Shown: positions 12,046-44,337, counted from the stretch's first letter. The stretch is DNA of 64,000 nucleotides from Tubulanus polymorphus (GCF_964204645.1 NC_134028.1:15507653-15571652); one strand, 5' to 3'. Made by a program: numbers and translations. The notes: a model not told the origin generated them from the sequence alone.

Positions 12046-12402
12046 AGTGATTCAGATAGTAAATATAATATATTGGTTGAAAATTGTATAAAATAATAGT
12101 GATTAAAAAAGGGGGTTTAAAGTATTTATGTATCTAATACATATTTAATACGCATTTAGTACATATTATTTGAAATACCTTTTACTGAGGTTATTTTCAA
12201 ACTTATTCAAATATTAGTTGAAAAATTAAAAATATATTAGTTGAAAAATTAAAATAAATAATATTTATTTTTCTTAAAAAGGGGTTTTTAGTATTAATGT
12301 ATCTAATACGTATTTAATGGCGTATTTAATATATGGGTTTTAAGTATTTATGTATCTAATATGTATCTAATACGTACCAAATACATTAATGCTTAAAATG
12401 TC

Positions 12403-14026: not shown

Positions 14027-14029
14027 TAA

Positions 14030-19220: not shown

Positions 19221-19293
19221 TATTAGATATTTAAATCATTTAACTAAATTCAATAATTATTTGACTATTTAATTTATTTTCAATGTAGAATTG

Positions 19294-19938
19294 TTACTCT
19301 TTACACCAGTTTTTATGTTTAATTGTTTGGTAATGCTTTGATTTATGTGATTTTGAATATTTACCTCCGCAATAACAATGAATTTTTTCATTAGGATTAA
19401 ATCTTTTGAATTCATTTTCTAAATCACATTGAATTGCGATATGTTTAAAAGATTTACTATTTTCTAAATCACACTGAATTGCAATATCTTTAAAAGAATT
19501 ATTGTTTTCTAAATCACATTGAATTTCAATATTTGATGTATTTTCATTATAAATAATTTGTTTATTATCAAAATTACAATAATATAATCGTCGTTTTTCA
19601 ATTCTTAAGTCTATCCTATCATTAAAAGGAAATTTAAGAATATTTATTATGTTTTCATCTAAATTACCTTTATAATTTAAAACTGTATTAAATATTTTAG
19701 GATTTTTGGCGCCATTATCTAAAGTATCTATTAGTTCAGTAATTAAATATGTTTCATTTAATAATATTTGATTAATTACAGTAATATTATCAATTTTATA
19801 TTGTCTTCCATATACTAAATTTGTTGCTGAAATATAATTTCTAATGTTAAACTGTGAAAATGATTTATTGGTTTCATTGATTTCGATTTTGAAGTTGGGT
19901 TCTTCTTTCTTCATTTTTATAACAAAATTATTACTCAC
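19294..19938 (-). CDS. Third copy of the IQCD-repeat protein, with a 12-aa in-frame deletion
   Basis: 214 aa versus 226 aa, otherwise identical. Confidence 0.6.
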   Translation of the reverse strand: MSNNFVIKMKKEEPNFKIEINETNKSFSQFNIRNYISATNLVYGRQYKIDNITVINQILLNETYLITELIDTLDNGAKNPKIFNTVLNYKGNLDENIINILKFPFNDRIDLRIEKRRLYYCNFDNKQIIYNENTSNIEIQCDLENNNSFKDIAIQCDLENSKSFKHIAIQCDLENEFKRFNPNEKIHCYCGGKYSKSHKSKHYQTIKHKNWCKE

Positions 19939-20252
19939 ACTTTACTCACACTTTTAATATTGAAAATCTCAATTATTTTACTCACACTTTACTCACACTT
20001 TTAATATTGAAAATCTCAATTATTTTACTCACACTTTACTCACATTTTTAATATTAAACAATTTTATCATTTTACTCACACTTTACTCACACTTTTAATA
20101 TTGAAAATCTAAATTATTTTACTCACACTTTACTCACACTTTTAATATTGAACAATTTTATCATTTTATTAGCGCTTTTATATTAAAAAGTGTGTTTATT
20201 TTTGGAAAAAAGCAAAAAAAAAAAAAAAATTTTAACACACGCGCAGCTGTTG

Positions 20253-20465
20253 TTACGCGCACTCACTGTTTATGTGTGTCACAATTTTACTACGTAATAT
20301 TTCTAAAATTTCAATTGTATCTTTTATTTCTAGTGAATCAATATAATTTCTAACATTTTCCATGTAAGGTTTAATATATTTATCAATGTATTTTTTACAA
20401 TATGGGCAATAATATTGATTTTTATTAACATCACTTTTTTCTGTTTGGAACTCACTGTCTCCCAT
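20253..20465 (-). pseudogene. Third copy of the deleted pPolB N-terminus
   Basis: Translation identical to 1971-2183. Confidence 0.85.
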
Positions 20466-21810
20466 TTATTAGGGAAAAAAATTACTTGTGGTGATGAGTG
20501 GTGTCTAGTACTCTAGTACTCTGGTATGAAACCCACATCTTCCAATTACTCATATATAGGCTTTAATACTTCGAATTCCGTTAGTAACAAGAATATTGCT
20601 CAACGAATTTACTTGAAACTTACGTGAGATGTACGGAACACAGGTAGCTTGAGGTAAGTCGAAGGGATCTTTGATTGGGGACCCCGTTCACCAACCAGGG
20701 GGTGTTTTACATTTGAAAATTGTGACATCGCAAAGTTACTGTGTGAGAAAATTTTTTGTCATTTTTTGACTTTTCAGCTTCGGGTGAGCACGAAAGTTGT
20801 TCATAACAGCCCGGAGGTTAAAAAAGTCATTGGCACGCCCCATCTGCGATTAACCGTTTGGGCTCTACGGGCTCGAAAATGGGCCCCCAAATTTTTTAAG
20901 GTGGGAATTAAACCTGTAAGACGCTGGAATACGCATTTTCATCTATATCGACTAAGGGTATCAATGGATTTCTATAAAAATTGATACACATGTACCTGGT
21001 TACAAAACGAAACGAACCCCTCATATGATTAGTTCCCATTTTAACCACTAGGGAGCGTAAATTTGAAAAATCGATTTCAGCATCCATTTTTCGCATTTAA
21101 TGCGGTCTGTTTATTATGAAAATCACAAAACTTGGTATAAGAACAAAGACATGTATGTAATATGCCATCCTGCACGAATAGTTCATACAACTGCCACCAG
21201 GGGACTGTGAAAACAACGATTTTTGCTCCTAGGTCCTTAACCGTTGGCGATAGAATCGAGGTTGCAATGTGTGGTTAGTAGCCCTTTTCAAGAGACTTGT
21301 ATTAATGTATGGTTTAAGTAGGTAACTTATATGGTTCTCCAGGAGCGCCACCTACATTTTGCTGGAAATACATTTTCATTGATAGCTACTAAGCGGATAA
21401 AGGGATCTCTATGAAAATTGATATACATGTACCTGGATATAAGATGCATCGAATCCCGAACATAATTAGTTCCTAATCTAACCACTAGGGGGCGTTTATT
21501 TTGAAAACTCATTCTAGCATCAGTTTTTTCGATTGTAATTCAGTAGTATGCTAACCGGCAAATTACCGGCCACTTGGGCATGGTAAAACTACCGTATCTT
21601 CGTTATTCTCGGTGTCATATCCCCTAACCTTGGTACATTAGAACTTTTCGCGTAGTATCCCATGTGAATCAACATAGCCATGTTATCAGCTGACCCCTAT
21701 GTGGTGCTCCTCATCCAGCAAGGCAGAAACCCGTTATCGCTGCTTTGCAGCTATATTTATTAGGGTTTTCTGTTACATCACAGAAAACCCTATTGAGATT
21801 CGCGTGTTTC

Positions 21811-21842: not shown

Positions 21843-22519
21843 TTTTTTTTCCACACATTTTTTGTCAAAAGTACATAGGCTTTTTTACATTACCGCTGTT
21901 GCCGATACAATCCGTCTCATATGATTCAGCTCAGTTCGATCTACAAATACTCCGTGCGAATTTTGAAGAATCAACGTTACAAAAGCACTGTCGGGCCGTA
22001 CATCGAAAATTGAGCCCCATTCAAAGAGCCGACATGTTTTTCTAAGTCGTCTTTCCGAAATCTACCGCACGTTTCTGGTCACATCGATTATCAATTCAAG
22101 CATAAATTAACAAATTTATTACCCAAAGATTGCACATTCTGTCGCGGTTTTTAAAAACTAATTTTAACAATAACCCATTTTCCTCATCAAATTATAATAC
22201 CAATACACAGGAAATTTACTACTTCAGATTTTAAAAGCACTGTCGAGCCGTAAACATCGACAAATCGACGTGTGTCACTACATCGTCGTTCCGGGAATCA
22301 GCTTCGAGTTTCTCCTCATTCTGAGAATCAAATCAAGTACAAATTAATTTATTACTACCAGTGATTTGGCTGCGGGCGTAAAGCAGTTAATTTAGCAATA
22401 CCTATTTTTCTTTACAAAATTTACCGTGTTTTTACTAAGATAAATCATAAGTGTACCGGGGAGTCGTAAGCCTAAACTAAACACGCCGAAGAGATATAGC
22501 GGAGAAAAGCTGTTATGTC

Positions 22520-22604
22520 AGTAATTGGAAGATGTGGGTTTCAGATCAGAGGTCGAAGGTCGACCACGCATCACCACAAGTAATTTTTTTTCCTTATAAA
22601 TGGG
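22520..22604 (+). repeat. Left TIR (includes promoter motif and ATG of the first ORF)
   Basis: Reverse complement of 37305-37389. Confidence 0.95.
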
Positions 22605-22926
22605 AGATAGAAAAGCATTCTTAGCAACAATAAATAACAGAATTAAACCAACAAAAAAACAATTTGAAATAAAAAAGTTAGTTGATGTTACAAAAGAAAT
22701 TGAACATAAGATATTGAAATTAGAAAAGATAAAAACTAAATATGGAGAGAAAGTATCAGCTAATTTAAGCTACTGTAATGTTAGTACATCACGAGAATTT
22801 AAAGTGTTTTTACCCGATAAATGGGTTTCATTGAGTACAGAGGAATTGAAAGATTTAGTAGGATTTAAAATAATCTATCATGGAAAAAATGAAGACGGTC
22901 ATCATGATTTAGAAATTGTTGATTAA
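22600..22926 (+). CDS. 108-aa hypothetical protein, possibly OB-fold/ssDNA-binding
   Basis: TAAATG start inside the TIR. KTKYG..VFLP..IIYHG pattern. The fold call is inference only. Confidence 0.7.
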   Translation: MGDRKAFLATINNRIKPTKKQFEIKKLVDVTKEIEHKILKLEKIKTKYGEKVSANLSYCNVSTSREFKVFLPDKWVSLSTEELKDLVGFKIIYHGKNEDGHHDLEIVD

Positions 22927-23059
22927 ATTTAAAAAAATAAATTAATAAAAATAATGAATATCTAGAATCTGAAATGACTTATCTGGACAATTTAATTGCT
23001 CCGCGTAGATGGTGCCATAAACGGCACCCACACAGTGATAGACAAAAGTAGTGAGATAT

Positions 23060-23458
23060 TCAATTATTTTTTTGCTTTTTTTCTAAAATATTAATCCATT
23101 TTTTTATTATCAATTTTGGAATTTCAGAAGTACTTTCATTTTTGATAGCAGTTGGTTCAGAATTACTAATATCATGAATTCTATTTGATTTCTTATACCA
23201 ATTACACCCAATCAAAATGAATACAATTACAAATCCAACTGTAAAATATAAATATTTATCAAATATTCTATTATCAGAAGGAGTAGAAATAACAATATTT
23301 TCACCATTTTTATTAACATTTTTATTACTTATTTTTTCTTTTACAGCTTTTTTATATTCTTGTGATTTAATTCCTAATTGCCGAGACCATTCAATTTATT
23401 TCTGAGTTCTCGGTTTTTTCTTCACAGTTAATTCCTTCACTTCTTTCACCTCGCTCAT
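23060..23458 (-). pseudogene. Small basic TM protein with a premature stop at codon 21
   Basis: MSEVKE..KKKPRTQK*IEWSRQLG..YLYFTVGFVIVFILIG. The homolog at 15041-15409 has Q at the stop position. Confidence 0.75.
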
Positions 23459-23996
23459 TTATTATAGAAATATTTTTACTTTCAATATTTGAAAATGTTA
23501 TAACCCCAGTTGATAATAATGTCATAAATCCACCTAATTGAAACGATAAATATCCAATCCATTTATTTAATTCAGTCATTACTAAATAATCATTTTTTAA
23601 ATCGGAATATAATCTATTTTCATCTTCAATTGGAAGTATATAATTACATAATTTACTATAACCTTTTACTACATTTTCTGATATCAAGTCATTAATTATA
23701 GCTGTTCTCGCAGCTTCATAAATCTTAAATAATCTAATAATTTCATCTGATTTCATTGTATCTAATTCATTATAAGTTAAATTTTTACCGACAAATTTTT
23801 TACATTTTCCAGATGCTATTAATATTTCTAATTGATGTTTACAATAAAGATAATATTCATAATTATTATTTGTTGTAACATTATTTAAAGCACCATCATC
23901 TGGAATTAATTTGTTTTCTGTTATTCCTAAATCATCTAAAGTTTTTTCAATTGGAACATCACCATTTTTAGATTTTATTTTCTTTTCACCTACCAT
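23391..23996 (-). CDS. 201-aa conserved Polinton protein with C-terminal hydrophobic segment
   Basis: TAAATG start. Homolog in the older element at 15399-16266. Confidence 0.85.
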   Translation of the reverse strand: MVGEKKIKSKNGDVPIEKTLDDLGITENKLIPDDGALNNVTTNNNYEYYLYCKHQLEILIASGKCKKFVGKNLTYNELDTMKSDEIIRLFKIYEAARTAIINDLISENVVKGYSKLCNYILPIEDENRLYSDLKNDYLVMTELNKWIGYLSFQLGGFMTLLSTGVITFSNIESKNISIINERGERSEGINCEEKTENSEIN

Positions 23997-24019
23997 TTAT
24001 ATAACAAAAAAATTAGTTG

Positions 24020-24300
24020 TGATGTTGCAACTAGAATTCAACTAGAATGTAACTAGAATTCAACTAGATTAACAAGCTAGTTGAAATATTGTTATTTTTG
24101 TTTATTTCTTGTTAAATCTAGTTGATTTTTGTTCCAACTACCAATAACTAGAATTCAACTAGAATGTAACTAGAATTAAACTAGATTAACAAGCTAGTTA
24201 CAATATTGTTAAAATCTAGTTGATTTTTGTTACAACTACCAATAACTAGAATTCAACTAGAATGTAACTAAATATGTAATTGATTAACAAACTAATTGAA
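24020..24300. repeat. Intergenic array of AACTAGA-type short repeats
   Basis: CAACTAGAATTCAACTAGAATGTAACTAGA-like blocks at ~24028, 24146 and 24243. Confidence 0.8.
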
Positions 24301-24301
24301 T

Positions 24302-24910
24302 TTAAATAAATTCATATTTAAATGGGTGTTGTAATCTAAATAGTAATTTTGATCTTTTAATATTTTTCAACTTATCCATATATTCATTATGTAAATCATG
24401 TGGAATAATATCATTTTCCTCAAGTGCATTTTTCATTGATTTTCTATCTTTATTGTAGAATAAAACTAGAAATCTTATATTCTCCCTAAAGTCTTTAACA
24501 ATTGAATTATATTTTTGATTTAAAACCCATGTTGTTATCCCAAAATGTCTCCCAGAGAAAGCTAGATAACATAACTCACTTTCTCTAACTTTTGAATCAT
24601 GTAAATTTGCGCAATCATCTATGATAAATAATGTATTTGATCCTTTATAAATATCAATTGCTGTTTTAATACAATTATTTAAATTTTCTTTTACTGTTTT
24701 AGGATCTAATATAATAAATTTATTATTTCTAGTAATATTTCTATCATAAGTTTGACTAAATTCATACGTTGGGCAAAATAATACTATATTATCAAAATAG
24801 TTTTCATAAACAGTTTCTAATAAATTTAATATAAAATAAGTTTTTCCACAATTTGTTACGCCAGATATTAACATATTATGAGGCTCAAATATAAATAATT
24901 CTTTATTCAT
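24302..24910 (-). CDS. A32/FtsK-HerA family genome-packaging ATPase
   Basis: Walker A GVTNCGKT, Walker B IIDD, SGRHFGI, NQKY..IREN-like motif. Confidence 0.93.
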   Translation of the reverse strand: MNKELFIFEPHNMLISGVTNCGKTYFILNLLETVYENYFDNIVLFCPTYEFSQTYDRNITRNNKFIILDPKTVKENLNNCIKTAIDIYKGSNTLFIIDDCANLHDSKVRESELCYLAFSGRHFGITTWVLNQKYNSIVKDFRENIRFLVLFYNKDRKSMKNALEENDIIPHDLHNEYMDKLKNIKRSKLLFRLQHPFKYEFI

Positions 24911-26037
24911 TTATATATTTTTAATTTTACTTGATAATATCCATTCATTGAATTTATCTGGCCATCCAACCCATTTTACTAAAGAATATTTTTTCTTTTA
25001 ATAGTTTTTGTTTTTAATACTTTTTCAATTTTATATTCTTGTTCTAGATTTTCAGTAGTTAAACTTAATTCTTCTTCGTAAAAGTAGCCATCAACTTCTT
25101 CACCATCTAAATCTTCTAATTTATAGACATATGGGTTTGTTGTTATTACCTTTTTTATTTTGTATATTTCTCTAGTAAAATTTCGATCGTATCCTTTATC
25201 AAATATCTTTTTATACTTAGAAATTCTAACATTTTGACCAACTTTAAATTTAGGTTCACCAAAATCATCTACAAGAAATGCTCCATATAAATTATTCCAA
25301 ACAATTTCAGCATTTTCAGGTTTTCTAGCATCAATAGGTTTCATTCCAATAGAAGAATGATAAGAATTATTATATCCTTCTATCAATTTTGGTAAAACAT
25401 CAATCCATTTAAAAGTATTATTTGCTGTAAAATATTTCCACATTCTTGTTCTTAATGTTCTATTAAATCGTTCAACAACTGCTGCTTTTTTATCTGATTT
25501 TGTTGAAAAATATTTAATATTATGATTATCTAAGAGTTCATGAACAAGTGAATTATCAAACTCTTTTCCATCATCAAATTGTATTTTTTCTGGTTTTAGT
25601 TTATCATCCGAAAGAAATTTTCTTAAAACATTTGATGTTTGTACAGCATCTTTTCTATAAAGTGGGAAGCTCCATACATAACGACTAAGAATATCAATTA
25701 TATTCAATAACCACCAATAATCATCATTATCTTTCTTAACATTTTTCATATCAATTAAATCTCGTTGCCACTGTTGATCTACATAACTTACCATAGTTTT
25801 ACGAGTTTTATATTTTCTAACAATTTTTTTATGTGTTGTATATGTTGGTTGTTCTAACATAAATTCATTTATATCTTTATATTTAACTGAATTTTGTGGG
25901 ATTATCTTATCTAATTTATCTTGTTTTACTTTACTCCATATATTTTTAGTAGAAGAATAAGCAACCGAACTCTCAGGGTTGTAATATAAATTTCTTAAAT
26001 ATTGTTCTTTAGTATTAGGAGTTTTTTTACCACCCAT
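24911..26037 (-). CDS. Retroviral-like (rve) integrase with C-terminal chromodomain (frameshift at ~24990)
   Basis: DDE motifs QWQRDLID, IQFDDGKEF, KAAVVERFNRT. YKIEKVL continues in a shifted frame as YSLVKWVGWPDKFNEWI, whose TAA abuts the ATPase ATG. Confidence 0.93.
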
Positions 26038-26067
26038 TTATATATCCTTAATTTTAACTTTATATTT

Positions 26068-27315
26068 CTAATATTGAATACTATCTAATTGTGAATTTAC
26101 AATATTTAATTGTGCGTCAGATACAATATAAATATGCATTTTGAAATTTTTGTCCCCTCTTTTCTTCGCCATGAATAATTGTATTCCATCTTTAGTGTTC
26201 TGTAGTTTTTTCCCAGAACCATGTAATGAATTATCCTCTGTTGTTCTAAAATCTAACCATAATGCATATTTATTACCGGTATAATAATCAATTTGATTAA
26301 TATTACAATTTTCAAATGATTTTACTTTTTCATTCATAAAATGTTTTCTAATTTCTGGCCATTGATCAATCATTCTCATTCCTTGACAAAATATTTTATT
26401 TGCTATTCCTTCGATAGTTATTTCAACTTTTGTTATTTCAGGATTATAATAATTATCTACCTTTATTGCGCCATTAGAATATGTTGCAATAGTAAAAAAT
26501 ATTAATATACCTTTAATAGATCTTCTTGGGAAGTTAATATTCTCATTAATTATTTCATCATTTGCATCAATAGTTACAGTTTTAAATTTATCAATATAAT
26601 CATATAATAATGAAAATCCTTGATTGTATTGAGTTTGAATTGTGCTAGCAATATTTTCATTAGTAACTGTGTTATATTCTAAACATATATTCGATAATTT
26701 ATAACCCATATCTTTAACAACGCTAGATAATACAATTTCATTTACAGGAGCAAATGTTATCTCAAATATAATATCTTCTTGAATTGCATATTTATATAAA
26801 GGTGCATTGTTATTTATCAATTCAAAGTCTAATGGAATTTTATATTTGCTTCCATAAATCTTTTTAATCAAATTATCTGTGGCACGAGTTACTATTGCGT
26901 CATTAGCTCCTGATCTTAATTTATTATGGTTTTCCGATTGAATACCCTGAAATATCATATTATTTCTATTTTCTTTAGTTAACCATAAATCTTTATAATG
27001 CATAAATAAATTATAATCATCTAATGAGAAAACTGTTTCTGGACCAATCTTTATAGTTAATTTTTTAATCAAATATCTCCCAACATTATCAACAACATAA
27101 TTATTATCATGACCAATTACTTTTATATCAGCTGATAAATAAATACTATTTGGAACATAAAAAGTATTTTGTGTTAATCTAGGGATTCTAACATATAAAG
27201 TTTCATCGGGATTAATATTTGAAGGGTTATGAGTAATTATATGATGTGATCTTTCTGCTTTAATGGCATTAGATATTCTAGAAATCTTAGAAGGACTTAT
27301 ATAACTCCCACTCAT
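26068..27315 (-). CDS. Major capsid protein (double jelly-roll, inferred)
   Basis: 415 aa, intact and beta-strand rich. Position and size fit a Polinton MCP. Conserved in the older element. The fold needs profile or structure confirmation. Confidence 0.78.
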   Translation of the reverse strand: MSGSYISPSKISRISNAIKAERSHHIITHNPSNINPDETLYVRIPRLTQNTFYVPNSIYLSADIKVIGHDNNYVVDNVGRYLIKKLTIKIGPETVFSLDDYNLFMHYKDLWLTKENRNNMIFQGIQSENHNKLRSGANDAIVTRATDNLIKKIYGSKYKIPLDFELINNNAPLYKYAIQEDIIFEITFAPVNEIVLSSVVKDMGYKLSNICLEYNTVTNENIASTIQTQYNQGFSLLYDYIDKFKTVTIDANDEIINENINFPRRSIKGILIFFTIATYSNGAIKVDNYYNPEITKVEITIEGIANKIFCQGMRMIDQWPEIRKHFMNEKVKSFENCNINQIDYYTGNKYALWLDFRTTEDNSLHGSGKKLQNTKDGIQLFMAKKRGDKNFKMHIYIVSDAQLNIVNSQLDSIQY

Positions 27316-27335
27316 TTATTTAACAAAAAAATTAA

Positions 27336-28770
27336 TTATTTATTTTTGATCATGTTTACTAAACCAAAAATAATAGCACTTACAACTGTAATTAAAAATA
27401 AAATAATATGTTCAGCAGCAAAGTTAAGAATATTCCCAGCAGATTTCAATATAAAACCAACAATTGATGCAATAACTCCTGGCAATGCTGCAGCAGATTT
27501 TTTAAGTAGTTCCCATAAATATTTTGCTAATTTCTTTAAACCATCCTTAACTTTATCTTGTATAGAATTATTATCATTCGGGGGTTTATCCGGTTTATTG
27601 GGAGTAGGAGTAGATTTCAAAGCATTTGATATTGCTAAACCAATTGTTGTAAATAACATAGTTACAGCTGTTAGAATTGAAAGAATTGTTATTCCTTCTA
27701 ATTTAAATAATAACTTTATTCTATCTTTTAATGATATTTCAGAATTTAGTTTAATCAACAAATCTTTAAAAATAACTTTTAATCTATTAATATTATAATC
27801 ATATGATTTTAACAATAATTTAATTTCTTCTTTTTGTAATTCTATGTTATATTCTAAATCATCTTTTTTTATTTTCTAAACGTAATTCTTTTTGCCTATA
27901 TTCTATTTCATCAATTACTTGATGATCTAAATCAGACTTTAATTGTTCTATTTCTTTATTTTTATCAGTTAATTCTTTTTCTAAAGTTCTAATTTTAAAA
28001 TCTCTTATACTTTTATCATGCGCAATTTTATTAGATGCAAGTCTTATACTAATAATTTCTCTAATTGCTTTATCAGAAAATATATCTAAATCTTCTAATT
28101 CTTGATCTGTTGCATCAATTAATCCATTCGGTAAAAGTTTTTCAATTGGAACTTTATTTGATTTAAGTTTACTATTTTTGGAAGTTATATTCTGTTCAGA
28201 AGTTGTTTCTGTTTCTGATTTCTTTTTGATTATTTCAAATAATTCATTAATTCTTTGTTTAAATACATCTATATTATCATCTATTTCTTTTTGTGTAACA
28301 TCAGTTATTTCATTACTATTACTTATTATTTTAATTCTATCTGGTTTTAATTTTTCTAAAGTTGATTCTGATAATATTTTATTTTTATTATTTTTATAAG
28401 TGATATCAATATAATAATCACCTTTCAAACGATAATAACATTTACCATTATCTAAAAATTTTAATTGATCTGCTAAAAGTCCAACGTCTTCATCATTTAT
28501 GTTAAGTTTAGATTTTTCAATTAAATCTTCTAATTTAGGTATTTTGTTTAAATTATCTAAATCTTGTTTTACTAAATCTGGATCTAAATTTTCAGGATTT
28601 AATTGTGATTCAGCATTTTTAATATAATCAGGCATATTCAAATTATTACTATATTCTGGCTCATTACCATCATTAAAACTTGTTTCATCAAAATCAGGTG
28701 GTTGTTCATCAGTTATACCAGGTTCATCAAAAGGATCCATTCCAATATCTTCTCCACCTTCTACATCCAT
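27336..28770 (-). pseudogene. Acidic/coiled-coil protein with multi-helix hydrophobic C-terminus, split by a +1 frameshift in an A-run at ~27864-27870
   Basis: 303-aa and 159-aa ORFs join as ENKK-DDLEYNIELQKEEIKLLLKSYDY. The relic at 57253-57870 has the same linker. Confidence 0.8.
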
Positions 28771-28786
28771 TTATATAATAAAAAAA

Positions 28787-30233
28787 TTAAAATTTAAAAT
28801 ATAATATTCCTCCTATAACAATTCCTATACAAGTTATAGCTAATTTAGTATTTTCATGGGATTTATTGTCATTATCAGTTTTAATTATATCATGTTGAAT
28901 AACACCGTGTGGGTGCCGTATGGCACCATTATCAGTTTTAATATCACCGTGTGGGTGCCGTACGGCACCATTTTCTGTAGTATTGTAATCTTTTATTTTG
29001 GAATCATTATCCAATTTAATATTCTTAGTTTTAGTTTCTGTTGATTGAATATGTTTTTTATTTTTTTCACCTTCCATTAATTTTGTAGCAGTAATAATCT
29101 TTTTATTTATATCATTTAACCCAAATGAATTATTTATTGTTGCAGTTTTAATTAGATTATTATAACCAATTATGTTTCCCATCTTTAATACTAAATCATT
29201 AGAAATAATTAATAGATTAGGGCCTATACAATAATTTAATCTAATATGTGATTTATCTAAATAATTTTGATATCTTATAATGTTTTCTGGAATCGATCTA
29301 TTTTTATCATTATGTATGGAATCTTCAAATAATACTTTGAATTGTTTCTGTGTATCAAATGATGTATTCAAATTTCCAATTATCGGTGATCTTGTTTCAA
29401 CTTGCGCACCTAAAATACATATCAAATAAGTTCTAATAGATTGATTTATTCTTTGTATACCTGATTTAGTAAAACCTTCATTATTTTCTAAAATGAAATA
29501 AACCCAACCATTATTGTTTTCTTGTTTTAAATTATCATAAAATTTCGGTAATTTATTGAAATTTAATGTTTCTAAATCCTTTGTTTCTATTTTACCACAA
29601 CCTAATTTATTATTATAGATATTATAAAAGCTATTAGATGGTATGGGAAGTGCATAATATTCTGCAATCTTATTAGGGCAAGGAAGTGACCTTATTGTTC
29701 CAATTTTTGTTCTAAAATCAGAATTATTTATATCTATATTAAATTCATTACAAATTTTATAAAACTTTGATGAATTAATATTATTATCTAATTCTTTAAA
29801 ATATCTTGATCCTGGCAAAGCGCACTCTAATTCATTTAATATTATTCTGATTTGAGAGTATGTATGAAATCTAAATAAACTTTGAATTAATTTATATTTA
29901 GAATTATTCAAATGATCATTCCAACTAATTCCACAACCTGTTGTTGCACAATAAACAGCAAAATTTAATTGGTTCTTTCTGCCAATACTTCATATTAGAT
30001 TTTAATAACCATTGTTTTTCATCTTTCAATTTTTTAAAATTAATTTAATATACATGAAATATATTTTCCATCTTTGCATTAAAATTATTAGTTTCAGTAA
30101 CATAAATTTCTAAATTAGTTAATGAATCTAAAACTTCATTTCTATATGTAATATCTTTATTAAAATCTATTGCTGGAATATTATATTTAATTGATTTATT
30201 ATATTGAAAAGCTTTTGGAAAACTATCTACCAT
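28787..30233 (-). pseudogene. Conserved Polinton protein (QLNFAVYCATTGCG...FRFH) with C-terminal TM anchor; 5' part frameshifted
   Basis: 62-aa and 374-aa ORFs are joined through the disrupted region 29912-30044. The N-terminus is paralogous to 30250-30801. Confidence 0.75.
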
Positions 30234-30249
30234 TTATTTAATAAAAAAA

Positions 30250-30801
30250 TTAATAATTTATTAATTCTTTTAATAATTTATCTTGTTCTTCAACTGTTAT
30301 ATGACCATTTAAACTCATGATATAATCTAGTGTGTTCTTAGAAAAATTAATATTATTATTCAATTCTTTAAAATATTTTGAACCTGGTAAAGGACATTCT
30401 AATTCATCTAATATTAATTTTATTTGAAAATAAGTATGAAATCTAAAAAGTGATAACATCAATGGTAAACTTGGTTTGTTTAAATGATCATTCCAACTAA
30501 TTCCACAACCTGTTGTTGCACAATAAACAGCGAAATTTAATTGGTTCTGCCAATACTTCATATTAGATTTTAAAAACCATTGTTTTGCCTCATTTAAATT
30601 TTTGAAATTAATTGTATACACATGAAATATATTTTCCATCATTACATGAAAATTATTACTTTCAGTAACATAAATATATAAATCAATTAATGAATTTAAA
30701 ACTTCATTTCTATATGTAATATCTTTATTAAAATCAATTGCTGGAATATTATATCTAATTGATTTATTATATTGGAAAGCTTTTGGAAAACTATCTGCCA
30801 T
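30250..30801 (-). CDS. Truncated paralog of the downstream gene, fused to the tail of the upstream gene
   Basis: MADSFPKAFQYNKS vs MVDSFPKAFQYNKS. The tail NTLDYIMSLNGHITVEEQDKLLKEL duplicates 30828-30906. Confidence 0.7.
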   Translation of the reverse strand: MADSFPKAFQYNKSIRYNIPAIDFNKDITYRNEVLNSLIDLYIYVTESNNFHVMMENIFHVYTINFKNLNEAKQWFLKSNMKYWQNQLNFAVYCATTGCGISWNDHLNKPSLPLMLSLFRFHTYFQIKLILDELECPLPGSKYFKELNNNINFSKNTLDYIMSLNGHITVEEQDKLLKELINY

Positions 30802-30906
30802 TTATATAATTTGAAAATTAATAATTTATAATTCTTTTAATAATTTATCTTGTTCTTCAACTGTTATATGGCCATTTAAACTTATTATATAATCTAGTGT
30901 ATTCTT

Positions 30907-31248
30907 TCATTTATTAATTTCTTTTATATTAGTTTTAATTTTTTCTTTATTACTTTTTATATTTAATTTTGAACTTATACCGGTTAAAACACTTGAACTT
31001 AATCCTAACACACCAATTGATATAGCTAAAGGTGTTAATGGGCTGAATATTGCTAAAAATGTTATTACAGAACTAATTGTAACCGAACCACTAATAATCA
31101 AATAATATATAATTTTACTTTTTAAATATTTTTTTTTTATCTTTAAGTCACTTTCAAATTCTAATATTTGTTTTTCTAAATATGTTTTTAATTTAGTTTT
31201 ATTTATATCATGAGGAATAATATCAATACTATCAACTTTATCTTCCAT
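30907..31248 (-). CDS. Small two-TM protein (probably originally extended to ~30828)
   Basis: Two hydrophobic stretches. TAAATG start. The frame continues past TGA as KNTLDYIISLNGHITVEEQ. Confidence 0.7.
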   Translation of the reverse strand: MEDKVDSIDIIPHDINKTKLKTYLEKQILEFESDLKIKKKYLKSKIIYYLIISGSVTISSVITFLAIFSPLTPLAISIGVLGLSSSVLTGISSKLNIKSNKEKIKTNIKEINK

Positions 31249-31264
31249 TTATTTAGAAAAAAAA

Positions 31265-31685
31265 TTACTTATTATTAAACTTATAAGCAACAAATATAAC
31301 AATAACAGTTCCACCTAAAATCCAAATTATTTCATATTTCTTCTGTTCATTACTTGGGGTATAATAATCTGATAATTTAGGTTTGTATAGATGTAATTTT
31401 TCTTTATTGGTTACCGCGTTATATAAACTCATTGCATCATCAACTGATTAAAAATCTCTATGTGAAATCTTCTGATCATATAATTCTTTGTTAATATAAT
31501 CCATATAGTTTTGCCTCTTTTCTCTATATTTAAGCTTTATTGTATTTCTCTAACGCTAAGTTATGTCTTCTTTGTTCTCCTAATGAACTATTTTTATCAA
31601 TATGTTTAAATAAATATCCACCACCAGTAAATGCCAAAGCGTTAACAATTGCCGATCCTATAATAGTTATAATTGCAGAAGCCAT
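31265..31685 (-). pseudogene. Small membrane-associated Polinton protein (stops/frameshift), absent from the ORF track
   Basis: MASAIITIIGSAIVNALAFTGGGYLF..EQRRHNLALEK..PKLSDYYTPSNEQKKYEIIWILGG. TAAATG start. Confidence 0.7.
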
Positions 31686-31709
31686 TTATTTAGTAAAAAA
31701 ATTATGCAT

Positions 31710-31931
31710 TTATATGGGAGGAATATATTTTTGTTTTTCCAAATAATCAATAGTTAAATTAGATAAAGTAATTGCTAATGTTAACTTTAAAATATCATTT
31801 ATATCAAATCTATCAACATTAACACTTCCCATTTTGAATACTTTTTTTAATACCATTGAATAACCAACAGTTCCAACTGATAGTAATGCTCCATTATATA
31901 ATCCAGTTATTATCCACTTATTATCACTCAT
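31710..31931 (-). CDS. 73-aa hydrophobic protein
   Basis: T-tract/TAAATG start, tightly packed with neighbours. Confidence 0.75.
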   Translation of the reverse strand: MSDNKWIITGLYNGALLSVGTVGYSMVLKKVFKMGSVNVDRFDINDILKLTLAITLSNLTIDYLEKQKYIPPI

Positions 31932-31934
31932 TTA

Positions 31935-32288
31935 TTAATCAAAAAAATTACTATCTTCAAAATATTTAGTTATCTTAGTGATGATTAATTCAACATTTAT
32001 TTTATTACTAGTTTCATTTGTATATATTTCAATTATTATTTTTCTAATATCATCGATGATAAAATCTTCATTTAATTCATAAAATCTTAAAGATTCTCTA
32101 ATTAAATTAGTAATCTTTTCTACATTTAAAGTTTCTTTATCTATTGTTGTTTTATACTCAAATGTTGTTTCATTAGAAAATGCAATATTTTTAATATGTG
32201 TAATTACATCATTAATGTTAAATTTCATTTCTTTCTCACGTTTAAAATCAAATCCAAAACATATACTCGGTCCAACAGTTATATTCAT
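31935..32288 (-). CDS. 117-aa hypothetical protein
   Basis: T-tract/TAAATG start, tightly packed with neighbours. Confidence 0.72.
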   Translation of the reverse strand: MNITVGPSICFGFDFKREKEMKFNINDVITHIKNIAFSNETTFEYKTTIDKETLNVEKITNLIRESLRFYELNEDFIIDDIRKIIIEIYTNETSNKINVELIITKITKYFEDSNFFD

Positions 32289-32304
32289 TTATATAGTGAA
32301 AAAA

Positions 32305-33062
32305 TTACTCTTTACATCTTATAACTAATTCATAAATTACAGGAAAGTTATTCAAATCAATTAAATAACCATTATGATTTCTTATTTCTAATTTAAAATT
32401 ATTGAAATGTGGAATACAAGGTTTGAAATCACATTCAGTTAAATTATAATTTATTTGAGTTCCAAATTGTTTGACATTTTTTAATGGTAAAATATTTAAT
32501 AAACCAGAATTACAAATTGTATCTTTAGTTGCTTCAAATGTTTTTGTTGGGTCAATAAATTGCAATAAATATAAAAGTGTGTAAAAGGTATTAAGTTTGA
32601 TCTACCTTCTGCGTGTGCTGTAACAATATTTGGGTTAATTCCTAACAGTTTAGCTAAAGGTTTTCTTACTGTAAATTTAAATTGTTCGTTATTATCTAAC
32701 CTAATCTTTATTTTATTAGAACTATCACTTTTTAAAATTCTAATATTAAATTTAGAATCACTTCCTAATTTAGCTCGAGCTTTTCTATTAATTTCTTGTG
32801 CTAATGTATCTAAATTATATAATCCTGGTTTTAAATATATAAAATACCATTCATTCATTTTTTTGTAAAAGATTGAAAAAATTAAATGTTCTAGACTTTT
32901 ATCCGATATATTGTAAAATGAGTTACATAAACTTATATTTACTAATTTTAAATCAACACAATTCTTAAATTCTCTATCTAATTGTACTAGTAAATTATGT
33001 GATTTATAATTTGTAAGTTTTCTAGAATCAACAAATATTCTGTGTTCTTTTAATTCTACCAT
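32305..33062 (-). pseudogene. Minor capsid protein (penton, single jelly-roll), 1-bp frameshift at ~32556
   Basis: N-terminal IFVDSR..LVNISLCNSFYNI..LKPGLY and C-terminal LEIRNHNGYLIDLNN are typical of Polinton/virophage pentons. YIYCNL/IDP rejoins with one base added. Confidence 0.75.
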
Positions 33063-33130
33063 TATTTATAACATAAAAAAATTACCGCTCATCACTAAAA
33101 ATTAATTTTAATAAAATTTTTCCTAAATAA

Positions 33131-34444
33131 ATGGATGAGAAGATAGCATGCGAAATTTGTGGTGAACTTCTAAGAAAAAGTAACATGGCTCGACATATGA
33201 AAAAACATGATGAAAATTATAAACCCCCTAAAATAAACTGTCCAAAATGTAATAAATTATTCTCAAGAAATTATGTTAAAAAACATTCAGAGAAGTGTAG
33301 AATTAATGGCGCAACGGCTAATGTTGATAGTAATGAAAGTAATAGTAATTCTGCTGAAGTTGAACCTGAAGTTATTTGGAAAAGACCTTTCTTATTCTAT
33401 GATAAGGATAATATAAAAAATCATTTCTGTGAGCCTTGTCGAATAAAATATAGCCCTGAAAATATAGAAGAGTGGGAGAATCATCGATTTCGTAAAGTAC
33501 ATATGGATAAAATTTCTAATAAATTTGAAACTGAATTTAATGAAAGAAAAAATAATTTATTAGAAAAAATAAAATATGAGAAAACGTTACCAGATAATAA
33601 AGAAACAGTTGAAAAGTTAGAAAAACAATATAATGAATTAACAAGAAAAACATATTATTGTAAATATTGTAAATTGATTATTACAACAAGTAATTCAAAT
33701 CTACATAATAGAACAATAAAACATAAAGAAAACGTAAGAAAATACCAAGAGCTTAATGAAGATCTATTACCAATAAATTATAAACAAAAATGCCCACAAT
33801 GTATTTATGCGACCTTAAGACAAGAAGGTACTGTGTTATTTTGTAATGAATGTGGATGGCAAAAGAATTTATTGGGTGAAGAAAAAACTAGAGATTTTCT
33901 CATAGATCCAAAATTAAATTATCTAGATGAAATTTTTAAAATATTTTCTATGGAAGATCATACACCAGAATATATGCAATGGCTTGAAAAAATGAAAATA
34001 ATAGAAAATAAAAATGGTAAAATAACTAAAAAAGATATTATAAATACAATTATTCCGTCAACATTTAACACAAAACAAAAGAAAATGTATTTATATTTAT
34101 TATTTAACGATTATTATGAAAAACCTAAATTAACAGAAGAAGATATGGAAAATATAAAAAAAATATTCAAACAAATATTAATGTATCATTTGGAAAATAG
34201 AATAACAGATTCAATAAATTATGAATTCTTTTTAAATAAGATTGTAAATTATTTAAACCTAGATATTATAATTCCATTCGACGAATTAACAAACAAAAAG
34301 AAACAAACAGAGCGAGATGAAATGTGGAACAAGACAGAACTTTATTTAAATGAAAAAAATGGAATGGAAGAAGAACCTAAACAATTAAATGAAAATGAAG
34401 AAGCCAATAGTGATTTCGAGTTTGATGATATAGATCCATTTTGA
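33131..34444 (+). CDS. Multi-C2H2 zinc-finger protein with C-terminal VLTF3 (poxvirus A2)-like domain
   Basis: Four CxxC..H fingers, zinc ribbon CPQC..CNECG, then PKLTEE..IF..SINYEFFLNKI..RDEMWNK, recalling the VLTF3 C-terminal motif. Intact, 437 aa. Confidence 0.7.
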   Translation: MDEKIACEICGELLRKSNMARHMKKHDENYKPPKINCPKCNKLFSRNYVKKHSEKCRINGATANVDSNESNSNSAEVEPEVIWKRPFLFYDKDNIKNHFCEPCRIKYSPENIEEWENHRFRKVHMDKISNKFETEFNERKNNLLEKIKYEKTLPDNKETVEKLEKQYNELTRKTYYCKYCKLIITTSNSNLHNRTIKHKENVRKYQELNEDLLPINYKQKCPQCIYATLRQEGTVLFCNECGWQKNLLGEEKTRDFLIDPKLNYLDEIFKIFSMEDHTPEYMQWLEKMKIIENKNGKITKKDIINTIIPSTFNTKQKKMYLYLLFNDYYEKPKLTEEDMENIKKIFKQILMYHLENRITDSINYEFFLNKIVNYLNLDIIIPFDELTNKKKQTERDEMWNKTELYLNEKNGMEEEPKQLNENEEANSDFEFDDIDPF

Positions 34445-37309
34445 TAACCATAAGGTAATGTTTTTATACCATCATCTAAAATATGCCTTTTATCATCAAA
34501 TGGATTTAAACTAGTTTTTTCAACTTCATTAATGTACATCTCATGATCTTCTGATCTTAAACAATTCATTTTGTGTTTCATTACAATTGATTTATATAAA
34601 CACTTTATATAATCTTGAAATTCTATATGTTTATCAACCACATGTTTTGTTATTCCTTTTAACTTTTTAGCTTCATGATCTTTTGTTCTGTAACTATACA
34701 TTTTACTTCTTATCCCAACAAATTCAATCATTTCATCACCCCCTAATTCATCTTTAAACTTACCAGGAATCTTTTTATTATCATTGCTAAATAGTTCATG
34801 ATCTTTGGGATAATTGCTAAAATCAAAATGATGTTTTAATGTTTTTAAGTCTTTTGTTATGTCATTTGTCTTGATTTTTAGTATGTAGGCGTCAGTATTG
34901 TTGGCTATTAATGGAAATCCACAGTTAAATGTACCATCTTCAGTTGATAAATCATAAACATAATCTGTTGGGTTATATATTTCAAATAAATCTTTAACTT
35001 CTTCAGTTTACTCATTTTTTACATGGCTTAAATTAAAGCAATTTGGTTTAGATTTAATCAATCCAATATTCATATTAAAACCTAATGAATTGCATAATAT
35101 ATTTAATCCTGATATAGCAACTTTTCCTTTTTGAGCTAAAGATATTGTTTTGCGGTTTTTGAAACTTTTAGTACCATCGGCTGCGTAGAATCCAATGAAG
35201 AACCATTTTCTTAAATTATTTTTTGCATTTAATACATAATCTGGAACTATCTTTTCTTTAGTTGAAGTATTACTTTTCACTATTGTATGAATATAGAATT
35301 CGTTATTATATTTTATAGCAAAATCTTTAGGATTATTCACATGTATTCTATAACATTGCGATGATTTCATAACATCTATGATTTTGAATGTTTTATGTGA
35401 ATAAACTTCTTCACAGAATTTCTTAATTCTTTCTAATAATTTAAAGTCTTGATTGCATAAATACCAGCAATATTGAGTGCGATTAACATAATTATACACA
35501 CCTGCTGAACCATCACCCATGAAGAATCCTTTGATAAAATATTCTTTTTCTTCTAATGTTTCGGGTTCTATATTATAAATATTATCAATAATTTCATCAA
35601 ATGACATATGATTCATTCTTTTGAAAAATCTTTTATGTAATAATTCATCTCCAATTTTTATATCAGTTGGTTTTATTTCATCGCCATTTCGTTTAATTAA
35701 ACTATGATCTTCTGTAACATCTACAAATCCTAATTTAGTTCTAACTCTATAGATTTTCTTATTTGTTTTATGCCTAATAATATTCTTTAATTTTTTCCAT
35801 CCATTTCTTGTCCAAACATCCATTAAACAATTTATTTGTATTAATTCTTTTTCTCCATATGAAATATAACATTCATTTTGTTTTGGAATTATTTCTGAAA
35901 TTCTTATCAATATTTTATCATTACATTTTAATAATATTGGGGTGTCAGCTGTTACAGAGTCAAAATATAATATTTCAATATGCTTTTCTACATAGATAAA
36001 TTTTACGATGATGATCACTTTCTGTTCTAAAGAATAAATCAATTTGTTTTAACCACATATAATGTTCATTTTCATCTTTTTTATAATATAACAAATCTAT
36101 AGCATTTTCATCATCATAATATTCTGTTAAATATAAAGCTTCCAATGTATAATCTTTAATATTTTCACCTTTTGTCTTTGGTAATTGCATTAATTCGAAT
36201 ACATTTATTTTTAAATTATTAATTTTTTCTATTTTAGGAATCATTTTTATAGTTACTGGATATTGATCAATTTTATATCATGTTTCATATTTCCGATAAT
36301 CTGTTATTCTACAAACATTTTCCTGTGTTGGATGTAAGCAACTAATAATTGACCATAGAAAACATTTATTATCTTCATTTTGAATATTTATTACTGCTTT
36401 TGTTATAAATGGTAATTTAATATAAGATGATGCTTTAATATCCTTTTCTGTTGTAAAGTTTGAATCATTTTTAAACATTTTATTACTTTTTGATGTTTTA
36501 TTTCTTTTTGTATTATAAACATTTAAATCTAAATATATTATTTCATTCAATGTTAAGCCAGAACCCTCAAAATATCTTTCTTCAATATGACGTTTAAATT
36601 CATTTGATATTTTTTCTAACTTCTCTTTTATTTGTGTTTTTGAAATTATTTCTTCAGAGAGTGTTTGAATATTATAATTCATTTTTTCTTCTGACTTTAT
36701 AAAACTTACTTTCCCAGAGATACTAATTTTTGGATATTCAACATCTGTTATCAAATCTAGTATTTTTTCTATTATTTCACTAAATTTGCTATAATCTTCT
36801 ATTGTTGTTCCTTTAAAAAATCTAAATATAATAGCTGCAGGACCAATTTTACTATGTAATGTTTCTAAAATTTCAATTGTATCTTTTATTTCTAGTGAAT
36901 CAATATAATTTCTAACATTTTCCATGTAAGGTTTATTTGAAATGGATTTAGTTTTTGAAGTTGATTTTTTTACTTGTTGAGGTTTATTATCAAAATATTC
37001 TGATCCTAAAACATTTTTATTTAAATTTTTATAATGTTTTTGTGATTCGAGATGTCTATTATAATTCCTTTTTACTATAAATTCATTACAAACTGCACAT
37101 TTTATTTCATCCACATTCATATTTTCTAATCGTTCTTTTCTTTCATTGGAATTTTCTGGAGTTTCAAAATCTATTACATTTTTTATATGATTTGCAGATT
37201 TTTCATGTCGTGATTTTTGGGATTTATCGATGTATTTTTTACAATATTGACAATAATATTGATTTTTATTGACATTATTGTTTTCTGGTTGGTGTTCATT
37301 CTCCCCCAT
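34342..37309 (-). pseudogene. Protein-primed family B DNA polymerase (pPolB), internally deleted, intein-containing
   Basis: N-terminal zinc fingers and OTU-like INIQNEDNKCFLWS..HY block. In-frame TGA at 36278. Deletion of exonuclease and motifs A/B at ~35990. Motif C ILYFD^TDA, then FDFSNY..PGKFKDE..RSKMY..KLKGI..FDDKR..TLPYG. Confidence 0.93.
34897..35958 (-). mobile_element. Intein with LAGLIDADG homing endonuclease, 354 codons, one nonsense codon (35008-35010)
   Basis: Block A SVTADTPIL, block B VDVTEDHSL, LAGLIDADG blocks IKGFFMGDG and FIGFYAADG, block F YVYDLSTEDGTF, terminus IANN/T. Excision restores YFD-TDA. Confidence 0.93.
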
Positions 37310-37389
37310 TTATAAGGAAAAAAAATTACTTGTGGTGATGAGTGGTCGACCTTCGACCTCTGATCTGAAACCCACATCTTCCAATTACT
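37305..37389 (-). repeat. Right TIR (includes promoter motif and ATG of pPolB)
   Basis: Reverse complement of 22520-22604. Confidence 0.95.
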
Positions 37390-37764
37390 TATGTCGACGA
37401 GGTATCAAAATAAAAGAATATATTACTTTATTCGGCCGCGGGCCTCTATATCAATACCATCAATACTCTATATTTCCTACAGTACATACCGATCATTGTC
37501 AAATCCACAAGGTATTTACTAAATACAAGTATATAACACACTCCTATCCGTATGCTGGACTCACACTTGACATTCGTAGTAAGCGTTCGCTGTGGGGGAA
37601 AGGAGATCGTTCGCTGTGTCGCTTGAAGTGTTTATCCAGTTTTACGCGACCTTAAAGCTTTAGTATGGTGGCTGATAAGATAAAAAAAACACGAATTTGC
37701 AAATGAGGGCGACATAACGACAAAACGACAAAACTAAAATAACGCGAGAAAACAATGATTTTGA

Positions 37765-38598
37765 TTTTGTCGCCCGCGACAATTCAATATTTTGGTTTTA
37801 TCGCCCGAGACAATTCATTATTTTGGTTTTATCGCCCGCGACAATTCAATATTTTTGTTTTATCGCCCGCGACAATTCATTAGTTTGGTTTTATCGCCCG
37901 CGACAATTCATTAGTTTGGTTTTGTCGCCCGCGACAATTCAATATTTTGGTTTTATCACCCGCGACAATTCATTAGTTTGGTTTTATCGTCCGTGATAAT
38001 TCAATATTTTGGTTTTATCGCCCACGACAAGTCATTACTTTGGTTTTATCTCCAGCGACAATTCATTATTTTCGTTTTGTCGCCCGCAACAATTCTTGTT
38101 TTTGGTTTTGACGCCTGCGACAATTCATTATTTTGGTTTTATACTTTGTTTTTGTCGCCCGAGACAATTTTTTTTTTTTGGTTTTGTCACCCGCGACAAT
38201 TCAATATTTTGGTTTTGTTGCCCGCGACGATTCAATATTTTGGTTTTATCGCCCGAGATAATTCATTATTTTGGTTTTATCGCCCGCGACAATTCATTAT
38301 TTTGGTTTTATCGCCCGCGACAATTCAATATTTTGGTTCTATCGCCCGCGACAATTCATTATTTTGGTTTTATCGCCCCCGACAATTCAATATTTTTGTT
38401 TTATCGCCCGCGACAATTCATTAGTTTGGTTTTATCGCCCGCGACAATTCATTAGTTTGGTTTTGTCGCCCGCGACAATTCAATATTTTGGTTTTATCAC
38501 CCGCGACAATTCATTAGTTTGGTTTTATCGCCCGCGACAATTCATTAGTTTGGTTTTGTCGCCCGCGACGATTCATTAGTTTGGTTTTGTCGCCCGCG
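37765..38598. repeat. 31-bp satellite (TTTTGGTTTTRTCGCCCGCGACAATTCATTA)n
   Basis: Read directly. Internal dyad TTGTCGC-CC-GCGACAA. Confidence 0.95.
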
Positions 38599-39418
38599 AA
38601 ATATCTTTCTTCAATATGACGTTTAAATTCATTTAATATTTTTTCTAACTTCTCTTTTATTTGTGTTTTTGAAATTATTTCTTCAGAGAGTGTTTGAATA
38701 TTATAATTCATTTTTTCTTCTGACTTTATAAAACTTACTTTCCCAGAGATACTAATTTTTGGATATTCAACATCTGTTATCAAATCTAGTATTTTTTCTA
38801 TTATTTCACTAAATTTGCTATAATCTTCTATTGTTGTTCCTTTAAAAAATCTAAATATAATAGCTGCAGGACCAATTTTACTATGTAATGTTTCTAAAAT
38901 TTCAATTGTATCTTTTATTTCTAGTGAATCAATATAATTTCTAACATTTTCGATGTAAGGTTTATTTGAAATGGATTTAGTTTTTGAAGTAGATTTTTTT
39001 ACTTGTTGAGGTTTATTATCAAAATATTCTGATCCTAAAACATTTTTATTTAAATTTTTATAATGTTTTTGTGATTCGAGATGTCTATTATAATTCCTTT
39101 TTACTATAAATTCATTACAAACTGCACATTTTATTTCATCCACATTCATATTTTCTAATCGTTCTTTTCTTTCATTGGAATTTTCTGGAGTTTCAAAATC
39201 TATTACATTTTTTATATGATTTGCAGATTTTTCATGTCGTGATTTTTGGGATTTATCGATGTATTTTTTACAATATTGACAATAATATTGATTTTTATTG
39301 ACATTATTGTTTTCTGGTTGGTGTTCATTCTCCCCCATTTATAAGGAAAAAAAATTACTTGTGGTGATGAGTGGTCGACCTTCGACCTCTGATCTGAAAC
39401 CCACATCTTCCAATAACT
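38599..39418 (-). mobile_element. Duplicated right end of the Polinton (truncated pPolB N-terminus plus TIR with one terminal substitution)
   Basis: Copy of 36570-37389 at offset 2029, followed by the same TATGTC and flank. Confidence 0.92.
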
Positions 39419-39794
39419 TATGTCGACGAGGTATCAAAATAAAAGAATATATTACTTTATTCGGCCGCGGGCCTCTATATCAATACCATCAATACTCTAT
39501 ATTTCCTACAGTACATACCGATCATTGTCAAATCCACAAGGTATTTACTAAATACAAGTATATAACACACTCCTATCCGTATGCTGGACTCACACTTGAC
39601 ATTCGTAGTAAGCGTTCGCTGTGGGGGAAAGGAGATCGTTCGCTGTGTCGCTTGAAGTGTTTATCCAGTTTTACGCGACCTTAAAGCTTTAGTATGGTGG
39701 CTGATAAGATAAAAAAAACACGAATTTGCAAATGAGGGCGACATAACGACAAAACGACAAAACTAAAATAACGCGAGAAAACAATGATTTTGAT

Positions 39795-44130: not shown

Positions 44131-44337
44131 TGGTTTTGTCGCCCGCGACAATTCATTATTCTGGTTTTGTCGCACCAACAATTCAATATTTTGTTTTTGT
44201 CGTCCGCGACAATTCATTATTTTGGTTTTATCGCCGCGACAATTCAATATTTTGGTTTTAACGCCCGCGACAATTCATTATTTTGGTTTTATCACCCGCG
44301 ACAATTCATTAATTTGGTTTTGTCGCCCGCGACAATT

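Follow-up and report, generated by a model that had tools for sequence, protein, structure and literature searches.

A fixed late-type motif at the gene starts of an integrated Polinton suggests transcription by a nucleocytovirus helper

A stretch of 64,000 nucleotides from Tubulanus polymorphus (GCF_964204645.1, NC_134028.1:15507653-15571652; the window) contains an integrated Polinton/Maverick-type element of 14,870 bp at 22520..37389, which is AT-rich and has several genes broken. At all 16 gene starts of the element TAAAT overlaps or just precedes the ATG, 15 times as TAAATG and once as TAAATAATG. Judged from the sequence, these motifs are likely to be late promoters for the RNA polymerase of a nucleocytovirus helper, with the element virophage-like and helper-dependent. 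Rather than an ordinary transposon, it is probably a parasite that exploits another virus. The fixed spacing of the motif, its conservation, its presence at divergent and terminal starts, the tolerance of AATAAA and the lack of an RNA polymerase of the element's own argue for a helper rather than host RNA polymerase II (Pol II).

The motif at the gene starts

An earlier sequence-only reading of this DNA had claimed that almost every gene starts with a T-tract followed by TAAATG, as in poxvirus late genes. The claim holds: TAA directly precedes the ATG at 21 of the 22 coordinates that it listed in the window, and TAAATA does so at 33062. The sites in the element are as follows.

22581..22602, plus strand: TAA-N13-TAAATG motif of a 108-amino-acid (aa) gene, start 22600 (sequence check)
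23456..23478, minus strand: motif variant, A-rich, with a 14-nt spacer, at the start (23458) of a broken gene (sequence, tblastn)
23994..24015, minus strand: motif of a 201-aa gene, start 23996 (sequence)
24908..24929, minus strand: motif, A-rich variant, of the A32 packaging ATPase gene, 24302-24910 (Pox_A32)
26035..26056, minus strand: motif, A-rich variant, of the rve integrase gene, 24979-26037 (rve)
27313..27334, minus strand: motif of the major capsid protein gene, 26068-27315 (double jelly roll)
28768..28789, minus strand: motif of a broken gene, 28770 to about 27336; the upstream TAA serves also as stop codon for the open reading frame (ORF) before it
30231..30252, minus strand: motif of a broken gene, 30233 to about 28787 (tblastn)
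30799..30820, minus strand: motif of a partial duplicate of the 30233 gene, start 30801 (29765-30339 against 30337-30906, 87%)
31246..31267, minus strand: motif of a 113-aa ORF, start 31248 (sequence)
31683..31704, minus strand: motif of a broken gene, 31685 to about 31265 (tblastn)
31929..31950, minus strand: motif of a 73-aa gene, start 31931; T-tract within the last codons of the upstream ORF
32286..32307, minus strand: motif of a 117-aa gene, start 32288 (sequence)
33060..33084, minus strand: motif with TAAATAATG at the divergent start 33062, candidate minor capsid gene (weak DUF5901)
33112..33133, plus strand: motif at the divergent start 33131, 437-aa zinc-finger protein (sequence, Pfam)
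37307..37328, minus strand: motif of the protein-primed PolB gene, 37309 to 34342 (sequence, alignment to relatives)

The start at 23458 opens just 20 codons, yet it aligns from residue 1 of a 130-aa protein in a relative. Ten ORFs of at least 50 aa lack the motif, and these comprise six internal pieces of broken genes and four opposite-strand frames. Three of the pieces (27659, 29182 and 31432) belong to motif-bearing genes, as found by tblastn against intact relatives, and three (34731, 35823 and 36244) to the broken PolB gene; the frames at 23217, 26341, 27352 and 28856, which lie opposite longer genes, appear to be shadow frames. An internal tandem duplication of about 575 bp (29765-30906, 87%) copied the 5' part of one gene together with its promoter.

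Enrichment over the AT-rich background, on which the sequence-only reading depended, was borne out at the starts. TAA directly followed by ATG (TAA|ATG) opens 14 of the 25 ORFs of at least 50 aa in 22581-37330 (15 including 33062), whereas among other ATGs the count is 32 of 554 (Fisher p 1e-10), and among the first ATGs of short ORFs it is 32 of 383 (p 1e-8). TAAATG alone occurs 46 times against 32.9 +/- 5.6 in shuffled sequence (maximum 50 in 200 shuffles), a mild overall excess which indicates that the signal is positional.

The spacing is rigid, a property beyond what the sequence-only reading had described. TAA lies exactly 13 nt before TAAAT at 14/14 TAAATG starts (here and in the per-site counts below, the 14 TAA|ATG starts of ORFs of at least 50 aa) compared with 2/32 other TAAATG, and the spacer is fixed over gene distances from 4 to over 300 bases. 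At 33062 the 13-nt spacing holds to TAAAT, and the ATG lies three bases further on. The full motif also stands where a same-strand upstream gene is absent, at 22600, 33062, 33131 and 37309. Two of these starts are terminal: the inner end of the left terminal inverted repeat is the motif plus the ATG of the first gene, and that of the right repeat is the motif plus the ATG of the PolB gene.

Other positions are also constrained. T occupies -13 and -14, and a purine +4, at 14/14 element starts (the purine at 41/41 in the element plus relatives), and A at -4 is invariant. The T-tract reported upstream of most starts is present as AATTTT at 12/14, with the A-rich variant at 24910 and 26037 instead. 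Five copies of the early-type AAAATTGA were counted. The strict pattern TAAWWTT-N8-ATAAAT has 15 copies in the element, every one at a start and none elsewhere, against 0.48 +/- 0.68 expected in 200 dinucleotide shuffles. Since this pattern was drawn from the same starts, the shuffle test is circular, and relatives were therefore used as an independent test.

These relatives are four metagenome contigs with capsid identity of 71-76%. TAA|ATG is found at 29 of their 40 ORF starts and at 48 of 1009 ATGs elsewhere; TA[A/T] stands at -19 in 17/29 of the TAA|ATG starts versus 4/48 of the others. No capsid or PolB relatives were found in the viral contig collection. In one close relative (L001:10340-10981) a deoxynucleoside kinase gene (Pfam dNK, E 2e-31) has this promoter motif too. 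Such kinase genes are common among large DNA viruses.

Proposed transcription by a helper, and alternatives

We infer that the motif marks transcription initiation rather than translation context, because it is found at divergent and terminal starts and because its spacing is anchored to TAAAT at 33062. In the mechanism that we propose, the signal would be bipartite, a TAA with a T-rich tract followed by TAAAT over the start codon, and would be read by the RNA polymerase of a helper nucleocytovirus that infects the same host as the element. Integrated copies would be silent under host Pol II. Upon helper infection, post-replicative machinery would initiate within TAAAT and give almost leaderless mRNAs, perhaps with vaccinia-like poly(A) heads formed by slippage, and the T-tracts behind stops may also act as terminators. 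PolB, capsid, ATPase and integrase would then replicate the element, package it and insert it again, in the manner of mavirus. Mavirus also encodes an rve integrase and a protein-primed PolB.

A host-driven alternative is that the motif is a compact nuclear promoter for Pol II, possibly used with an element factor such as the 437-aa zinc-finger protein, so that the element would be autonomous. We regard this as unlikely, although zinc-finger ORFs are present, integration means that the element reaches the nucleus, and TATAAATG, which contains the TATA-box-like TATAAA, stands at 8/14 starts. Other animal Polintons are also transcribed without a known helper, according to the passages of PMC8502044 on this point. 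However, a TATA box directs initiation 25-30 bp downstream (as described in part of PMC5294985), which here would fall past an ATG whose place as residue 1 is shared by orthologues. In seven cases neighboring genes are 4-31 bases apart, so that a Pol II promoter and a poly(A) signal would hardly fit between them. AATAAA is moreover not avoided: the coding strand holds about 5 per kb, with 54 against 47.5 expected in the element and 128 against 130 in the coding strands of relatives (synonymous shuffling). Nuclear polyadenylation is described, in passages of PMC6211774, as fragmenting AT-rich genes of cytoplasmic yeast elements.

The polymerase could instead come from another cytoplasmic element, such as a linear-plasmid-like replicon or a sister Polinton with a poxvirus-like RNA polymerase, which we hold to be quite improbable. 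Yeast linear elements do combine a TAAAN initiator with their own pox-like polymerase (described in part of PMC6211774), the motif is more rigid than in every virus set used for comparison, and two motif scans turned up no virus contig that has it as its norm. Yet upstream of their initiator the yeast elements have an early-type ATNTGA in place of a T-tract, and no such replicon lies within the window. Nor was any RNA polymerase subunit matched among the element proteins in Pfam, NCBIfam or PHROGs, or detected in those proteins of the relatives that were scanned.

That the motif is a by-product of compaction, through stop-start coupling, an upstream poly(A) signal or terminator, or translation context, is largely refuted and very improbable: at 3/16 sites the upstream TAA also ends the ORF before it and 7-8 T come next, AATAAA lies within 6/14 sites, and in a relative the integrase stop is the TAA of TAAATG at the orthologue of the ATPase start 24910, but in this copy the TAA of TAAATG ends an annotated upstream ORF at 0/16 sites, the full motif is present at divergent and terminal starts, and the 13-nt spacer does not vary with gene distance. 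Stop-start coupling, which the sequence-only reading had named among the explanations that could undo it, accounts for at most one site.

Coding strands also avoid T-runs, most strongly TTTTTVT (2 against 8.3 expected; relatives 6 against 19.9), and the mirror AAAAABA is not depleted. The avoided run is reminiscent of TTTTTNT, the poxvirus early terminator. It also resembles the terminators of asfarviruses, which passages of PMC7458399 describe as poly-T.

Candidate helper families

The motif was compared with gene starts of 18 chordopox-like, 14 iridovirus-like and 27 more distant related giant-virus loci, labeled by gene content rather than by tree; these sets exclude entomopoxvirus and asfarvirus DNA, and a search for entomopoxvirus loci with a poxvirus helicase alignment returned just chordopox-like contigs. 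TAAATG is present at 129/294 distinct chordopox-like starts, 39/136 iridovirus-like and 71/354 other giant-virus starts. De-replication was by weighting of orthologue clusters (21 chordopox, 19 iridovirus-like and 53 other). In the same order, weighted frequencies of TT at -14/-13 are 0.48, 0.17 and 0.17, and those of a +4 purine 0.95, 0.78 and 0.76. The T-tract position and the +4 purine thus favor poxviruses.

The likeness to chordopoxvirus late and intermediate promoters, as far as these are described in PMC11980589, PMC12917281 and PMC5294985, extends over TAAAT(G), the +4 purine and a T-tract that peaks at -14 to -12. The A-rich stretch at -19 to -17 and the A-rich variant class that lacks a long T-tract are also shared. 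In the late promoters of vaccinia TAAAT(G) overlaps the start codon, and the T located ten bases upstream is conserved (passages of PMC11980589); the intermediate promoters combine TAAA with an A-rich core (PMC11980589 and PMC12917281, passages).

The iridovirus-like and related giant-virus contigs (L125-L165) resemble the element in ATAAATG, at 29% and 20% of distinct starts, and in A at -4, at 95% and 72%. They differ from it in TT at -14/-13 (17%), in a +4 position that is not purine-restricted and in having no fixed upstream TAA. The iridovirus-like contigs L125-L137 and L165 show a strong (T/A)AATAAATG start context, with A at -4 and -5 in 38-39/39; no description of it was found in the literature passages searched. 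Features of the element that may point toward asfarviruses are TATATA before 6/14 starts and the avoidance of T-runs, the asfarvirus motif being taken from description only: partial accounts give a late promoter with a TATA initiator, TATTT about 11-15 nt upstream and poly-T terminators. Two scans of viral contigs for the motif gave single matches, and five TAAATG-start-rich contigs, all giant-virus-like, do not have the fixed spacer as their norm. Baculovirus late promoters are of the TAAG type. This type does not fit.

Several observations weigh against a pox-like helper, or against a helper altogether. The near-invariant TAA 13 nt upstream sets the element apart from chordopoxviruses, in which this spacer occurs at 2/218 TAAATG starts (1/39 iridovirus-like, 6/71 other), as does its A at -4, which is typical of the iridovirus-like set (0.95) and not of poxviruses (0.52). 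Weight matrices are split: of the 14 element starts 9 fit poxviruses best, 5 other giant viruses and none the iridovirus-like set, and of 27 starts in relatives 11, 12 and 4, respectively. The five motif-selected contigs were excluded from this final comparison, and including them gives the same conclusion. Neither motif scan, the first of which covered 22/64 parts of the collection, found a genome in which the full motif is the rule. At 33-42% capsid identity, distant relatives have starts of a TAAAATG-like kind or lack any such motif. Since A-runs are likewise scarce (A7, 13 against 27), part of the T-run depletion may be general homopolymer avoidance, and central genes of poxviruses show no TTTTTVT depletion (127 against 130). 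The T-tract at 31931 lies inside the upstream ORF, contrary to a strict terminator role. As a sign of non-nuclear transcription, AATAAA tolerance, judged without a nuclear-transcribed control, is suggestive only. Finally, both the promoter role and the helper are predictions from sequence.

Taken with these points, the proposal of the sequence-only reading that a pox-like or other nucleocytovirus polymerase, not Pol II, transcribes the element is supported as regards promoter and helper. The comparison that it called for with virus promoters places chordopoxviruses first on T-tract and +4 purine but divides on the matrices, and the TAA spacer is rare in chordopoxviruses; the label 'poxviral' is only the best of several fits. 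Given a nucleocytovirus helper, a pox-like one has somewhat less than an even chance; an iridovirus-related helper is possible at lower probability, and an asfar-like or other helper is less probable still.

The element, its copies and kindred systems

The limits of the element are set by its terminal repeats and target-site duplication, and an empty version of the insertion site, with TATGTC in single copy, lies near 48683-48694. Features other than the motif sites are listed here.

22514..22519, plus strand: left target-site duplication TATGTC (6 bp); right copy at 37390-37395
22520..37389, no strand: integrated Polinton/Maverick-type element (terminal inverted repeats, target-site duplication, empty site, gene content)
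22520..22604, plus strand: left terminal inverted repeat, 85 bp, 84/85 bases identical to the right repeat
34870..35970, minus strand: intein with LAGLIDADG domain in PolB; limits approximate, interrupted by a stop
37305..37389, minus strand: right terminal inverted repeat, 85 bp, matching the left repeat

Because several genes are in pieces, this copy is defective. The integrase (Pfam rve, E 2e-8) and the packaging ATPase (Pox_A32, E 3e-13) were identified by domain. The capsid protein (415 aa) has a structure model with pLDDT 85 that is a double jelly roll, and the top structural matches of this model are PBCV-1 and iridovirus capsid proteins. The gene starting at 33062 has a weak DUF5901 match and may encode a minor capsid protein. 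An adenovirus-like (adenain) cysteine protease, which passages of PMC4028283 report in 74% of Polintons, had no match in Pfam, NCBIfam or PHROGs, several ORFs of the element being broken or without an assignment.

The PolB gene has a large internal deletion and an intein inside. Its pieces gave no direct Pfam PolB match, and the assignment is through alignment of the PolB flanks and the intein with two related proteins, P0378 (DNA_pol_B_2, E 9e-13) and P0394. The intein sits at the catalytic motif of protein-primed PolB. Its nearest relatives are in other protein-primed (Polinton-type) polymerases, and PF00136, the RNA-primed PolB family, is found on 14/30 matches. This kinship with RNA-primed family-B polymerases is consistent with past exchange or shared cells with large DNA viruses.

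One capsid homologue, at 38% identity, carries a bivalve name, and Atlas clusters are mostly eukaryote with Arthropoda commonest, which hints at an animal (marine invertebrate) host. Some capsid and ATPase homologues (P0044, P0453, P0470; L292-L294) are filed under bacterial or archaeal assemblies, for example Bartonella sp.; this is probably contamination from eukaryote hosts.

The same starts had been reported elsewhere in the window, and most of these stand. Those at 15409, 57231 and 1971 are orthologous, and 11276 and 16266 are plausibly starts of decayed genes. The exception is 15040, in an older copy, where no gene starts. There ATG-GAT-TAA corresponds to the final two residues in the orthologue of the upstream gene, and the integrase of that copy aligns from 15025. 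The older, decayed copies (10612-16290 and 56599-57901; capsid 87-92% to the main copy) are interrupted by host repeats, and their motif spacing has drifted to 12-14 nt. A non-autonomous derivative (1883-8191 and 17657-20553) resembles 37222-37392 at 82% in terminal repeat, promoter and PolB N-terminus; behind these come a 218-aa ORF that lacks the motif and long 24-nt tandem arrays. The right end of the element plus flank (36564-40731) is duplicated (38593-40731), giving a further motif copy at 39338.

The region 1-10152 forms a large palindrome (arms 1-1457/8696-10152 and 1491-4167/5907-8583, complementary at 100%), either a real inverted duplication or an assembly fold-back. A 31-nt satellite and 155-nt repeats form long arrays at 37750-53360 and 60887-64000, and the element is inserted in one such unit. 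The flanks gave no tRNA, Rfam or convincing Pfam match (35 frames, one sub-threshold match). Five words of a pattern that we take to be CTCF-like were found, a further faint hint of an animal host.

In its terminal inverted repeats, 6-bp target-site duplication, rve integrase, protein-primed PolB, packaging ATPase and double-jelly-roll capsid the element is like Polintons/Mavericks and adintoviruses, as described in passages of PMC4028283 and PMC8502044. It is unlike them in the protease, which was not detected, and in its proposed helper dependence, which lies outside those descriptions. Helper-promoter sharing is described, in passages of 10.1101/2025.10.09.676808, PMC6401483 and PMC11788076, for mavirus/EMALEs, Loki's Castle virophages and the pacmanvirus transpoviron, which, as proposed for the element, are small DNA parasites with their helper's late promoter upstream of most genes. 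Their hosts are protists and their motifs of mimivirus or asfarvirus type (TCTA, TATATA), whereas the element combines a Polinton-type capsid with a TAAAT initiator and yielded no protease. Other Polinton-like viruses, which co-purify with entomopoxviruses, have been proposed as poxvirus parasites (Barth et al. 2024, PMC11296320); compared with the element by description, they have a cysteine protease and no rve integrase, and the main text of that paper holds no promoter or motif analysis.

Promoter sharing in protist virophages is already known, and what appears to be new here is a rigid pox-type motif in an integrase-bearing Polinton. No report of such a promoter was found in the literature searched, subscription papers and supplements lying outside its scope. 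By term search, the word 'promoter' is absent from the main texts of PMC4028283 and PMC8502044 and from bioRxiv 10.64898/2026.10.13.758929, and passages of 10.1101/2024.03.23.586382 and PMC6431247 hold nothing on promoters.

It has long been asked whether the Polintons of multicellular hosts live as autonomous nuclear viruses or depend on a helper, and the 22-base motif makes the question cheaply testable. The motif could sort Polinton families into autonomous and helper-dependent by sequence alone, and could predict large DNA viruses not yet seen. As a tentative extension, which we think rather doubtful, the integrase-bearing Polintons of marine animals, as a widespread clade, might be endogenous virophages of an undiscovered invertebrate poxvirus-like lineage, with a promoter that predicts that of the helper and with copies that possibly act as an antiviral trap. 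If true, Polinton copies could be an inducible antiviral trap in animals, as EMALEs are in protists.

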